A stretch of 64,000 nucleotides of DNA from Amoebophrya sp. A120 (GCA_905178155.1 CAJINV010000024.1:181964-245963), one strand, 5' to 3'; numbered from the stretch's first letter, positions 22,701-28,700 are shown. Made by a program: numbers and translations. Notes: generated by a model from the letters alone, not told the origin.

Positions 22701-25700
22701 GCTTTCCAGGAATGCAATTCGCGATCTGTATCTGCTCTGGCGGGAGTGGCTTTCGGGGTGCCAAAACTGCCGCCGGTGTAAGCAAACTTTCCCCCTTGCC
22801 AAGCCACCGAGCACAAGAATCACGGGGGGAGAGTGCTGCCAAAGCCCTTGAGAAGATTCGCGGCCAGCAAAAAAAAACCCAAAAGTCCACAGGGCAAAAA
22901 AATACTTTCCAGGAATGCAATTCGCGATCTGTGTCTGCTCTGGCGGGAATGGCTTTCGAAGTGCCAAAACTGCCGCAGGTGTAAGCAGTATTTTCCCCCT
23001 TGCCAAGCCGCCAAGCACAAGAACCACGGGCGGAGAGTGCTGNNNNNNNNNNNNNNNNNNNNNNNNNNNNNNNNNNNNNNNNNNNNNNNNNNNNNNNNNN
23101 NNNNNNNNNNNNNNNNNNNNNNNNNNNNNNNNNNNNNNNNNNAATGGCTTTCGAAGTGCCAAAACTGCCGCAGGTGTAAGCAGTATTTTCCCCCTTGCCA
23201 AGCCGCCAAGCACAAGAACCACGGGCGGAGAGTGCTGCCAAAGCCCTTGAGAAGATTCGCGGCCAACAGAAAAACACCCAAAAGTCCACAGGGCGAAAAA
23301 CTGCTTTCCAGGAATGCAACTCGCGATCTGTATCTGCTCTGGCGGATGTGGCTTTCGGGGTGCCAAAACTGCCGCAGGTGTAAGCAAACTTTCCCCCTTG
23401 CCAAGGCGCCAAGCACAAGAATCACGGGGGGAGAGTGCTGCCAAAGCCCTTGATAAGATTCGCGGCCAGCAAAAAAAAACCCAAAAGTCCATAGGGCGAA
23501 AAAATGCTTTCCAGGAATGAAACTCCCGCTCTGTATCCGCTCTGGCGGAAATGGCTTTCGGGGTGCCAAAACTGCCGCAGGTGTAAGCAAACTTTCCCCC
23601 TTGCCAAGCCGCAAAGCACAAGAATCACGGGGGGAGAGTGCTGCCAAAGCTCTTGAGAAGATTCGCGGCCAGCAAAAAAAAACCCAAAAGTCCACAGGGC
23701 GAAAAAATGCTTTCCAGGAATGCAATTCGCGGTCTTTATCTGCTTTGGCGGAAGTGGCTTTCGGGGTGCCAAAACTGCCGCAGGTGTAAGCAAACTTTCC
23801 CCCTTGCCAAGCCGCCAAGCACAAGAATCACGGGGGGAGAGTGCTGCCAAAGCCCTTGAGAAGATTCACGGCCAGAAGAAAAACAACCCAAAAGTCCACA
23901 GGGCGAAAAAATGCTTTCCAGGAATGCAATTCGCGATCTGTATCTGCTCTGGCGGAAATGGCTTTCGGGGTGCCAAAACTGCCGCCGGTGTAAGCAAATT
24001 TTCCCCCTTGCCGAGCCGCCAAGCACAAGAATCACGGGGGGAGAGTGCTGCCAAAGCCCTTGAAAAAAACTAACGGCCAACGAAAAAAACCCCAAAAGGC
24101 CGCAAGGCGAAAAAATGCTTCCCAGGAATGAAACTCCCACTCTGTATCTGTTCTTAGCGGACATGGAAGCCGTGGACTTATATTGTTCATCTTTATTGCT
24201 TCTTATGCATTGCAAAAGTATCGTACTCGTATAAATGCAATACAAATTTCCTCAGCATCAGAAATAAAATCTGTCATGCAGATTTACCTTGAGAAAAAAA
24301 ATTGTAATGCAGGACTGCAGTTACTACGAGTACGATACTTTTGCACAGGATACCTCTATCCACTTATATCTATCAGCAGTACCCGATCTCCGTCTTCCAG
24401 CCCATCTTCTTCTTCGCCTTGGTTGGGTCGCCCAACAGCGTCTCGACTTCCGTTGGTCGGTAGTACGTTATCGCAAGAAAAAACTGTTTCACTGTGAACT
24501 TGTGATGCAGAAAATGAAACACCAAAATGTTTGTCTTGCTACACCTGCAAGACATTGGATTTTCAAGCGTGTTTTCCCTTGGGAACCGCGCATGGCAAAT
24601 TTTCTGTTTCATGTGTAACAAACTTGTGATGCAGGTCTCGCAAAATCACCACAGTGAAACAGTTTTTTCGTGGGATATACTTCTCGCTGACACCGATGAC
24701 GACCTTCCCCGTGACCGTATCGACACCCTCTTCGTGCACTATGGAGTTCTCAAATGGGCTTACTTACAGTGATAACTGTCACATGAACTTGTGATGCAAG
24801 AATAGCAAAAGTGAAGCTGAAGCTAAATAGGGGCCGCCGGACGTGGAGTTTGCGTGCCTCGCATTACAAATTTGGAACGGATCTTTTCCTCATGCGTGCA
24901 GCATTCGTCGTGCGATGGCGCGTGATCTTGTAGACATCAGGCGGATAGAGACAGGGATTTTGCATGGCAAATCATGTGACAGCGAGCACTGTAGTAAACA
25001 TTTGAGAACGCCATATGCACCCCGCTGCCCTGCCATCGGATCGGGTGTCCTGCCATGCTATCAAATGCAAATATGTGTGGGTCTGAGAGATTGTCATGCT
25101 AGTCTGGCATGACTCTGAGTTCTGTATTGCGTGGCCGCGAAGAGCTCCGCTTGCCTGTCATGCAACAACGCAATTTCTTATGCGGATTACGCAAGTCAGA
25201 ACCACGGCAAAACTTGTCATGCTGGGCAGCGCATTAGAGTGTTTGCACTATTCCCTTCCTTGCATCACAAGTTTCCAGACCCAGACATATTTGCATTTGA
25301 TACATGCGGAAGGACAGCTCGCACAGGTCGCGCACGGAGTACTGTCGCCCGGTTGCGATTATGCATAGCAAAAGCACCGCACTGGTACTATACTTCTAAT
25401 TGCAGTCATGCATATACAACTTTCCTGTTATCCTTCTCAAGGTATCAAATCCGCATTGCAAATTTCCCTTCTCATCATGCTAAGGAAGTTTGTCATGCGA
25501 TTTCTCCTAGTATCAGATAGTACTTTTTTGCAATTCATAGCGATTACAAAATCCTCGGGCACGTCTTGCTGCAGCATCATCCACATGCCCCGCACGTAGT
25601 CGTAGGCGTGGCTCTATCAACTGCAAATATGTCTGGGTCTGGAAACTTGTAATGCTGCGTTGGGAGTAGTGAATGCTCTGTAATGCACAGCCAAGCATGA

Positions 25701-28700
25701 GAAATATCTGCGCTTCTTTGTGTTGCGTTTTTCGCATGACAAACTGCGTTTTATTTGCAGGACAAGCAAAAGGGTCTCTTCTTGGACACGCATCACAAAC
25801 TTTTTGGTCATGCCAGACAAGCATGACCAATCTCGCAATCTTCCAGACCCAGACATTTTTGCATTTGATAGGCCCCAGTCGCGCTTGGCGTCCAGGTTTC
25901 CCAAGGTGATGCGGTCCTTGATCCCGGCGCAAATCTGCGCAACACCGGTGGTCACCTTTTTTTATTTTGAGTACTATCAGCTTTAAGAGCATGTGATGAA
26001 ACGATGCTACAAAGCAGCACAACTACGTACGAGCCAGCGGCGAATTTGTTCACTCACTTCCCTTTGATCCGTGTGCTGGTACGAAAAAAGATTTCTTCAG
26101 AAGGTCGTGTGTTAAGATGAAAAAAGCTGATGAACAACAGCATATGCGGGCTGTCGTTCGATGTGGAGCTTGTTTAGAGATGTACACTATACTACATAGG
26201 TACTACAGCGACCAGGAGGGAAGAGTACTTATTATACCGATTCAAAACAAAGGAAACTGTTTCAGTTTCCTTCACACATCCTATATACCTTCTTCGTCAC
26301 AAAAGTGCCCCCGCGGCGCGGCGATTCGTGGTTGAACAAAATCCCATCTATATCCTGAGTAAAAACGTCCCCACACGACCAGAGTCACGATGGGAAATCT
26401 GCTAGACAAATCAACCAGCTCTGGTTGTTTCGCATGACAAGTTTGATGTCCTCGTAGTGTACAGTCCTGTTTAGTTAGTGCAGCAGCATCACAGATCTAG
26501 CGCAGCATGCTGATGGGAGCAAGACAAATTACGAAACGCGACTAATAAATGCTTGTCATGGGGCTCCGCATGAGTAAACTTTTTTGGCATGCAGATTTGC
26601 ATGATAACTCTGGTGTGGGAACATTTTTAATCAGGATAATTTACCGCATACATGTCGTACGCCTCTCGGTAGTTCACCACGGCCCAATATCAATTGTAAA
26701 AATGTCTGGGTCTGGAAGAATCCAACTTGTCATGCTGATTTTGGATCCTAAAAAAATCTGTATTGCATGAGCAGCAGAGAGAGTCCAAGTTTTGCTACAC
26801 GGAAAGAGCATTTGTCATGCGGTGTAGGCATGAGGAACCCCTCGCAAAATCTGTCATGCCAGGGCATGCATCACAGACATCTGGAGTTATGCAAAATGTG
26901 CATGACAAACCTGGCAATCTTCCAGACCCAGACATTTTTACATTTGATGCCCAATAACCGTATATTTTTGCCACGGCGTACGGGGAACGGGGATAAAATG
27001 GCGTCGTCTCCTTCTGGGGAATTTCCTGCACTTTACCTGAGGTGATGTGGGGGATTTGAAATCAGATTTTTATCGATCATTTCGATTATAATAGTGCCTC
27101 CAAGCAGAAGAGGACGTAGTACGGTGCTACATGAAGTAAGTAAGTACATCAAGCGCAATGCATAGCACTAGAACATCAAAAGGAGCCTTCTCAATACTAC
27201 AAGTCGTAGAGGCACCACCTGCACCTACTATGATCCCCTTTCGAACTTAACTCAACTTTGACTTACCGTAGAGCTCGCTCGTGCTGGCTTGGTAGAACCT
27301 GGTCGTCTTTTCCAGTCGGCACGTCCGCAAAGCCTCTAGCATGCGCATCGTGCCCAGTGCGTCGCACTGCGCGGTCTACTATCAGGTGCAAATATGTCTA
27401 GGTCTGGAAAGTAGGTGCAGCGCATTCCGTTGGTGCCACGTTTTGCATGACAGAGCAAGGTTTGGGACGGCATCAACGCATCACAAATTCTATTTTCGTG
27501 TGGTACTTACTACTGCGAATCGTGCTATCGTGTATTGCATGACAAACTGAGTTTCACAGCATGACAAAAAAACCGTTCACTCCTGTCCATGCAATACAGA
27601 TCTGGTTACCCTTCAAATATTGCATCACAGATTCAGACGGGGACATATTTGCAATGCGTATGTACTCCGGTTCCTCGAACGAGACCTTCACGTGGGACTG
27701 CGCCCTATGCCCCGCAAACATCCCTAGAACTTGTGATGCTGCTTCTGGAAAGTAAAAGAATCTGTATTGCATGATGACCAGCAAGAGGACCAAGAGGACT
27801 CCAGGATTTGCTTCACGGAGACGAGGTGAGTAAGTATTTGTTTCTCATGCGGAACAGGGATCAAGAAGCCCTCAGAAAATCAATCTTTTATGCCACGTCA
27901 CACATCACAGACAGTGTGGGTCATGCAAAATGTGCATGACAAACATTCCACTTTTATTTCAGACACGATCCAGTTCCAGGGATGTTTGCAATGCATATGC
28001 CCCCAGATTGTACACCTCGTCAGGCCGGACCTTCTCCAGAATTATGCAAGAATAATAAGGGGTGTGTATGTAAGTGTAAGTCTGTAATGCAAAACCTGCA
28101 ATCACGCAGTCACACTTGTCATGCTAGCCAGCCATACCATCCTATTACCGTATAGCTATGTGCTTTTACGTAGTACTAGCTCTCCATGACAGGCTTCGTG
28201 TGTGATGCAGGAGCAAGATTTGTCATGCTGGACTCACCTGCACTATGTATACACTTTTTCATTTTTCTTGGATATGAATGGAGCACAAATTACTGGTGTC
28301 CACCAAATCGCCATAGTGGAGTGTGATCTCGTTGAAGATGTGCTCGATGCGCCCGGTGTTGAACGAACTGCTTCGTCGGATGATGCCGTGCACCTTGTAG
28401 CCCTTTTCCAAGAGATATCCAGGGAAAAAAGTGTGTAAGTGTAACTTTCTTCAAGCAACAGCATGACAAATTTGCTCTGCATGACAGAGAAAACCTCGCA
28501 TGCGTAGCTAGTACGTGAGAGCACTTAGAAGAAGAACGGAACCTCTAATGCATGTCCAGCATGACAAGTGTAGGTGTCTTGCATCCTCTGCAACACAAAT
28601 TTACACTTACACAGTTTTTTTCTTGCATAGGAGAAACTCCGCGAGGTAGGAGCCGTCCTGGCCGGTGATACCGGTGTATGACAGTGCACAACTCCCCCTC

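Follow-up and report, generated by a model that had tools for sequence, protein, structure and literature searches.

A single 4+1 register fits the informative splice junctions of introners in two genes of Amoebophrya sp. A120

Where exactly is an introner cut out of a transcript when direct repeats overlap its boundaries and its ends are non-canonical? The question is raised by a 64,000-nt stretch of the Amoebophrya sp. A120 genome (GCA_905178155.1, CAJINV010000024.1:181964-245963; hereafter the window), in which such elements interrupt a GDP-mannose 4,6-dehydratase (GMD) gene. A120 introners have been described as non-canonical introns of ~240 nt that form a hairpin, carry a repeat with TAT and an A-run seven bases later and have 3-5 nt direct repeats overlapping their boundaries; about 30,000 A120 introns are of this kind (PMC7789003). 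Farhat 2021 terms their splice sites variable or unknown, with no clear signature (PMC7789003), and their splicing has been stated as an open question (PMC7789003, PMC11282704). From mismatched direct repeats (DRs) in the GMD gene, an earlier note on this DNA had read a fixed register, N-TAT...ATA-NNNN, in which the spliced product keeps positions 1-4 of a 5-bp duplication from the upstream copy and position 5 from the downstream copy. It had also noted that a similar DR overlap may already be published for Amoebophrya, and the boundary overlap is indeed given in Farhat 2021 (PMC7789003). Here, RNA-type contigs and a second gene both bore out the 4+1 register.

The GMD transcription unit occupies 19007-29756 on the minus strand (extent from an X2 contig) and contains 15 introners and three GT-AG introns. 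It was identified by a Pfam GDP_Man_Dehyd match on one exon (E 1.1e-9) and by matches to GMD entries in the PDB; a homolog search with a single GMD exon returned no match. The window is eukaryotic; the genes examined all lie on the minus strand, which is the sense strand throughout, and DR letters are given as upstream/downstream copy. The 15 GMD elements measure 180-347 nt each and have TAT...ATA inverted-repeat ends. Modelled splicing of 19016-29409 yielded 2117 nt with an open frame, equal to the length of the X1 contig spanning the same interval. Junctions were read from four RNA-type contig sets (X1-X4; two samples from a single study), whose RNA status was guessed automatically; several intron bins of zero depth and the joined GT-AG introns back this guess. 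The junction test region, 24390-28672, holds 11 introners and two GT-AG introns. All 13 expected joints were found in 4/4 runs, on one contig per run, and the exon pieces listed at these joints showed no deviating letters; the other rows among the 15 shown of 16 were two single-run joints between repeats. The intron length removed was the element plus 5, so that exactly the length of one DR copy goes with the element.

Which copy is kept can be expressed as k, the count of upstream-copy DR letters retained in the spliced product, and every junction bounds k from one side only. The four mismatched DRs named in the earlier note were all found, and the protein effects ascribed to them held. At the intron 25611-25871 (element 25615-25870, DR GGGCC/GAGCC), upstream position 2 is retained (k at least 2; joint 25609>25871, both=3, 4/4 runs), giving DWGH rather than DWSH, and RDWG is conserved in the three PDB dehydratase alignments shown. 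The intron 26347-26639 (element 26351-26638, TAAAT/TAGAT; joint 26345>26639, both=2) sets k at least 3 and encodes NGILF rather than DGILF, while the intron 27376-27661 (element 27380-27660, GTACA/GTAGA; joint 27374>27661, both=1) sets k at least 4, with Y replaced by a stop otherwise. The bound runs the other way at the intron 28039-28275 (element 28043-28274, ATTCA/ATTCT; joint 28038>28276, both=4), where downstream position 5 is retained (k at most 4), giving IL rather than IQ. Three further mismatched DRs in the test region were informative: the intron 24465-24678 (element 24469-24677, AAGTA/ACGTA; joint 24463>24678, both=3) with k at least 2, and the introns 27702-27998 (element 27706-27997, GGGCA/GGGCG; joint 27701>27999, both=4) and 28412-28630 (element 28416-28629, TCTCC/TCTCT; joint 28411>28631, both=4), both retaining downstream position 5 with k at most 4. 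The last two are synonymous, so that two of the three position-5 RNA cases could not have been detected in the earlier note. In addition, X1 and X2 contig pieces end at 19772, next to the intron 19774-20034 (element 19778-20033, TTGCG/TCGTG), which adds k at least 4. Across these eight GMD junctions, the test at mismatched repeats that the earlier note had proposed gave a clear outcome: k=4 fits 8/8, while k=3 fits six and k=5 fits five.

The remaining introners of the test region have perfect DRs. Three of them (elements 24740-25015, 25059-25302 and 25360-25539; introns within 24736-25540) showed RNA joints with the element plus 5 removed, and the fourth is the intron 26684-26950 (element 26688-26949, DR TTGGG; joint 26681>26949, both=8). 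The two canonical GT-AG introns, 25956-26288 (joint 25953>26287) and 27037-27266 (joint 27032>27263), both start with GTA. The GMD gene also has a 3.8-kb GT-AG intron (20552-24382), which houses a 203-bp x 17 tandem array (20624-24166, assembly gap included) and, at 24204-24352, a nested TAT...ATA element.

A second gene, on the minus strand at 36938-42621 by alignment of the deposited protein P0001, contains 11 elements. P0001 is named Amoebophrya sp. A120 and is 99% identical to the window exon 39903-40421. All seven informative elements fit k=4; three have perfect DRs and one (36758) is read through. The bounds were k at most 4 at 40861 and 41357, k at least 4 at 37491 and k 3-4 at 39602, with weaker bounds of k at least 3 at 37158 and at least 1 at 38514 and 40427. 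If each junction drew k at random, finding all 15 junctions of the two genes compatible with k=4 would have P 0.0004 (range 0-5), 0.026 (3-5) or 0.016 (4-5). Taken together, these results let us state with high confidence that the elements are excised as N-TAT...ATA-NNNN, the 4+1 split being the only fixed register that fits all 15 informative junctions. At the element read through (36758-37046, DR GTTCT/CTTCT), P0001 continues into the element instead of splicing; the annotation may be wrong here, or the last intron may be retained.

Some features of the data weigh against so strict a register. P0001 is annotation rather than reads, its construction being inferred from the methods of its source paper, and the elements 39602 and 37491 were delimited after the protein had been seen. 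Furthermore, if each of the 15 junctions drew k=3 or k=4 at random, P would be 0.125, so a 3/4 wobble is compatible with them. Such a wobble is one form of a register that is not fixed, in which junctions slide inside the DR and mismatches persist only where the protein tolerates them. The one-sided bounds, the ability of contigs to mask minor isoforms and the published placement of repeats 1-5 nt from splice sites (PMC7789003) are all consistent with sliding. Nevertheless, k=4 is common to 15/15 informative junctions, and two of the RNA position-5 cases are synonymous and therefore cannot have been selected by the protein; an aligner, moreover, is free to place a junction anywhere in a perfect DR, which would explain the published spread. 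We thus regard sliding as very improbable.

A trivial origin of the pattern would be that errors of assembly or differences between strains account for the mismatches, or that the joined contigs derive from a processed DNA copy. The guessed RNA status leans that way, as does one contig of the DNA-like run X5 that also skips 13926-14167. Against it, X5 contigs left the genome letters unchanged over 25276-25641, 25846-26379 and 27544-28487, stretches that contain both DR copies at three mismatched elements and one copy at two more, and in X1-X4 the exons are joined across all 13 introns, the GT-AG ones among them, with zero depth in several intron bins. An artefact is accordingly scarcely credible. 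The X5 contig in question has a depth of 29, like the single-copy contigs of that run, and lacks element 13931-14167 plus 5 nt; X1 and X2 skip 13926-14167 as well, and the X5 contig may represent an empty allele or an insertion-free paralog. A raw RNA-read run, X9, contributed 128 reads to the window. Of these, 122 had a likeness of 90-95% and lay chiefly at element ends, and no splice junction was found among the 128. Its reads at 15792-15826 and 26687-26948 match element ends only and then pass into unrelated sequence, which suggests a related strain with the element retained in the transcript.

The register is framed by a duplication of constant length. Among 46 window elements, flank identity at length 5 was 0.85-0.93 per position, compared with 0.15-0.39 at lengths 2-4 and 6-9. 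We also collected loci L001-L150, which are 150 of an estimated 500 stretches from a motif scan and resemble the window in their elements; 234 elements from them, paired without a duplication criterion, gave 0.88-0.93 at length 5 and 0.21-0.34 otherwise. The flanking duplication is 5 bp and is not due to chance. The terminal inverted repeat starts with TAT and has an A-run at ~11-13 (position matrix), the elements are repeated as families, and 11/11 in the test region are removed with non-GT-AG ends under any allowed register. With inverted repeats, a constant 5-bp duplication and lengths of 146-347 nt, they have the features of miniature inverted-repeat transposable elements (MITEs), i.e., non-autonomous DNA transposons with terminal inverted repeats. 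No GT-AG enrichment was seen among them (5/132 locus and 2/46 window elements). DR mismatches in oriented genes numbered 8, 11, 7, 10 and 13 at positions 1-5. A model of duplication-guided alignment found no support because the apparent excess of mismatches at position 5 vanished once the genes were oriented. At 35346-35763, a second element (35370-35566) is apparently inserted within the terminal repeat of the first.

To ask which bases accompany the splice sites, elements have to be read in the sense direction. Locus elements were oriented by a codon model applied to the flanking exons only, with the element sequence never used; leave-one-gene-out trials were correct in 37/37 cases at the margin used and in 41/43 without a margin. 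The margin was passed by 132 of 191 locus elements; the 59 dropped as weakly oriented include three end variants (3' ACA, 5' TAC and, with a margin of 0.4, 5' CAT). Together with 47 window elements, these made an oriented set of 179. The unoriented elements 31350, 35346, 53070-54565 and 60721 stand outside the oriented counts, and element 36758 is included in the folding and duplication counts and excluded from the set of 179.

In this set, the first intron base is free (G 62, A 58, C 37, T 22), as are the bases at -4 to -1; the base that opens the 3' exon is likewise free. At the intron end, A stands at -2 in 50 elements, G at -1 in 55 and AG in 14; neither G at +1 nor a 3' AG is therefore required. 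Conversely, T occupies +2 in 178/179 elements, A occupies +3 in 179/179 and A occupies -7 in 179/179. The sole +2 exception is element 26688-26949, whose 5' end is CAT; under the 4+1 register it has G at +1, hence a GC donor, and it is spliced in the RNA contigs. The four canonical introns examined all begin with GTA. By its ends the set is not U2-type (GT/GC with AG), with G at +1 in 62/179 and AG in 14/179, and the match to the U2-type consensus is limited to +2 T and +3 A. Nor is it U12-type: there is no AT-AC among 46 window elements, and minor small nuclear RNAs are reported absent in A120. Strand-specific bases thus serve as landmarks: U at +2, A at +3 and probably A at -7, all of which vary less than their hairpin partners.

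The published intron classes can be compared with these landmarks. In Table S4 of PMC7789003, the predominant A120 classes are GT-AC, CT-AG, AT-AG, GT-CG, GT-AA, CT-AC, AT-AT, AT-AC and TT-AG. Every one of the nine predominant A25 classes is TT-NN, and the repeat of A25 begins with TTA; T thus stands at +2 in 18/18 predominant non-canonical classes. Given the TTA repeat and the TT-NN classes of A25, the two strains would share T at +2 and A at +3, at different offsets from the repeat end. A stands at -2 in 8/9 of the A120 classes of that table, unlike in our oriented set (50/179), a discrepancy that could come from strand confusion or aligner bias. The commonest A120 repeat was placed four nt away on the upstream side of the inverted repeat and within two on the downstream side (PMC7789003), and these "four nucleotides upstream" may partly anticipate the 4 of 4+1. 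Farhat 2021 dealt with the same elements in the same organism; added here, relative to the text of PMC7789003, are the constant 5-bp duplication, the 4+1 split and the strand-specific landmarks. A literature search, with subscription papers and theses outside its scope, found neither the 4+1 register nor an N-TA donor stated for Amoebophrya. Since Fig. S19 of PMC7789003 marks predicted exon borders on examples, it may already depict the register. The element class is already known, and the splice register is newly resolved.

The earlier note had further claimed that what fixes the splice sites is their distance from the hairpin base and not a dinucleotide. Independence from GT-AG was upheld by the occurrence of all four bases at +1 and by the 14/179 AG ends; a pure ruler, cutting 1 nt before and 4 nt after the helix base and reading no base, was not supported. 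It accords with the free bases at +1 and -4 to -1, with elements that are predicted to fold end to end (28043-28274, z -2.05) and with their occurrence in both orientations. In predicted folds of 46 window elements (one with a mis-set end), P exceeds 0.5 for the first pair in 29 and for the inner stem in 39. However, the predicted helix base shifts from element to element. In four of the 15 GMD elements (25615, as C-G, 28677, 28937 and 20134), Watson-Crick pairing of +1 with -4 is possible (predicted at 0.65-1.0) and would extend the helix by 1-2 pairs, and the terminal TAT:ATA pairs are predicted open (P at most 0.12) in four others (19778, 25360, 27380 and 28416). The length removed is the element plus 5 regardless of the stem, by direct RNA joints for 25615, 25360, 27380 and 28416 and by the total spliced length and open frame for the remaining stem-shifted elements.

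A symmetric hairpin also predicts equal mutation at the two ends. The asymmetry pattern was set from the window and Table S4 before the locus elements were oriented. In the 132 locus elements, 9/9 end variants then fell at +4 (two), -5 (six) or -6 (one); in the window they fell at +4 (one, the 5' TAC of element 27380-27660), -5 (three) and -6 (one), plus the +2 variant with G at +1. In total, 14/15 end variants lie at +4, -5 or -6, the exception being the GC donor, and a pure ruler therefore fares poorly, with the reservation that the counts are small and the folding is predicted. When ends fixed by the search motif were left out, repeat position 1 was variable in 0/74 free 5' ends and 6/91 free 3' ends (Fisher p 0.033) and repeat position 3 in 2/74 and 0/91 (p 0.20), with a joint p of 0.003 for both positions; four inner control positions gave 9 and 11 variants. 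The signal is moderate at +2 and, taken by itself, weak at -7. We consider the pure ruler distinctly improbable. One window variant, element 5795-6077, was oriented by the DVWALG motif of a protein kinase gene (2271-8744, minus strand); this gene has long low-complexity extensions, and one of its introners splits DVWALG and ends in ATG, not ATA.

What, then, might read these landmarks? With modest confidence, we favour the major spliceosome in a relaxed form, with N-U-A read as the donor and a candidate branch A at -7 as the point from which the 3' site is measured. The elements would be non-autonomous, MITE-like DNA transposons, and the 5-bp duplication their target-site duplication. The first bases of the repeat, T-A, would land on +2/+3 and therefore mimic the G-U-A donor of the canonical introns of this genome. 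The A at -7 would serve as the branch nucleotide, with the 3' site six bases on at a fixed distance. The end-to-end hairpin would juxtapose the intron ends, replacing recognition by U1 and U2AF, and its weak A-U base would open so that catalysis could proceed. With palindromic ends and unread duplicated bases, an element landing at nearly any exonic site, whichever way round, would leave no scar on splicing, which would explain the invasion. A120 has U2, U4, U5 and U6 and 83/89 spliceosomal proteins, and its U1 RNA was undetected in the published data (PMC7789003). Precedents for parts of this scheme exist in Giardia, with its V-TATGTT donor, constant spacing of branch and acceptor and base-paired introns (PMC6679479), and in Fritillaria, whose U2 spliceosome excises introners with inverted repeats (10.1101/2025.08.15.670264).

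Several observations count against a spliceosomal account with these landmarks. The L001-L150 loci have no RNA support, and the Table S4 classes are aligner placements and possibly biased (PMC7789003). A stands at -7 in just 2/4 canonical introns, and no CTAAC-like branch motif was found at the 3' ends of the 179 oriented elements. The constraint on -7 A, taken alone, rests on three variants at +4 and none at -7 (p 0.25; free ends p 0.20), and the contrast of +3 with -6 on 0 and 2 variants. The -2 A occurs in 50/179 elements here, whereas Giardia retains AG and Fritillaria mostly a penultimate A. At repeat position 4, where the two ends differ, TATC lies on the 5' side in 50 and on the 3' side in 20 elements of the window and loci (window 14 and 4; bystander locus elements, not chosen by the search pattern, 15 and 8, p 0.21). 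Yeast-type U6 pairing favours G at +5, and yUnAy is a branch motif; the 5' TATC bias is opposed to what either would lead one to expect.

The same 4+1 register could instead be produced outside the spliceosome, by an endonuclease and ligase that bind the hairpin and read its bases asymmetrically, as proposed for Euglena. Euglena introns with paired motifs and fixed 3-nt and 5-nt spacers, an unknown machinery and reported circular products (PMC12501133) provide a precedent. The inner repeat is predicted paired in 39/46 window elements, the 179 oriented elements show no AG, penultimate A or recognisable branch motif as a rule, and the undetected U1 RNA (PMC7789003) points the same way. Set against this, the constrained 5' bases match the canonical GTA donor of the genome, the lone +2 exception forms a GC donor, the A25 classes likewise carry T at +2 and the A120 spliceosome is nearly complete (PMC7789003). 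Euglena, moreover, requires a purine to open the 3' exon (PMC12501133), a base that is free here. A non-spliceosomal route, the main rival, thus seems unlikely, though less so than the pure ruler.

Returning to the relaxed spliceosome, we tentatively propose, as a possible though doubtful extension, that it needs neither terminal G's nor a 3' AG and works from a minimal code, N-U-A...A-N6, with the hairpin replacing U1. If this were true, one code would cover both A120, with its TAT repeat and 4+1 split, and A25, with a TTA repeat at which the intron starts; a palindromic transposon of this kind, inserted at nearly any site and in either orientation, would become a scarless intron. If splicing is spliceosomal at all, the splice code would be unusually relaxed, with neither G at +1 nor a 3' AG, and this would account for exons being saturated by a transposon at low cost. 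The fixed register itself replaces "no signature" with an exact consensus and allows A120 genes to be re-annotated free of junction ambiguity. Single-base predictions follow from the account: branching at -7, an essential U at +2 and a dispensable A at -5.

The window holds other features as well. An expressed gene at 12278-18573 (minus strand) has 13 introners and apparently no other intron; its spliced length of 2300 equals that of an X2 contig, three of its DRs are mismatched at position 1, and two ankyrin-like repeats were noted by eye near the C-terminus. Tandem arrays lie at 45943-46879 (72 bp x 13, 99%, within long open frames) and at 10010-11231 (309 bp x 4), and CAA-type and 9-bp microsatellites adjoin an assembly gap at 31850-32161.

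Each of the systems with which these introners can be compared shares part of the pattern. The nonconventional introns of Euglena likewise have paired end motifs and fixed spacers, the 3' spacer being the longer, and their direct-repeat ambiguity was likewise settled through non-slidable junctions (PMC12501133). Their signature, 5'-N3CDG...CH'GN5-6|R, has spacers of 3 and 5-6 versus 1 and 4 here, and their CAG/CTG motifs, purine after the 3' site and lack of a match to a canonical donor differ from the TAT/ATA of A120 (PMC12501133). Assignment to the Euglena type was rejected on this signature, since the A120 form is N-TAT...ATA-N4 with a free first base of the 3' exon. Introns of Giardia and Trichomonas show a relaxed +1 and T-A-T at +2 to +4 (V-TATGTT), resembling the donor here, together with an invariant distance from branch to 3' site and internal pairing that juxtaposes the intron ends; they differ in being few, in having a long conserved branch motif, in keeping AG and in not being described, in the accessible part of that paper, as transposon-derived (PMC6679479). 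The introners of Fritillaria borealis are likewise genome-wide and MITE-derived, with inverted repeats and target duplications (10.1101/2025.08.15.670264; PMC11282704), and they are excised by the U2 spliceosome (10.1101/2025.08.15.670264). Most of their termini are AG-AC/AT, 88% have a penultimate A and their U1 is conserved (10.1101/2025.08.15.670264), whereas in A120 the last four bases vary freely and no U1 RNA was detected. In the introners of Micromonas and Florenciella, finally, the junction likewise lies within the duplication and the mRNA length is unchanged; those introners require GT/GC or AG in the target, whereas no target dinucleotide is needed here (PMC9860276, PMC11282704).

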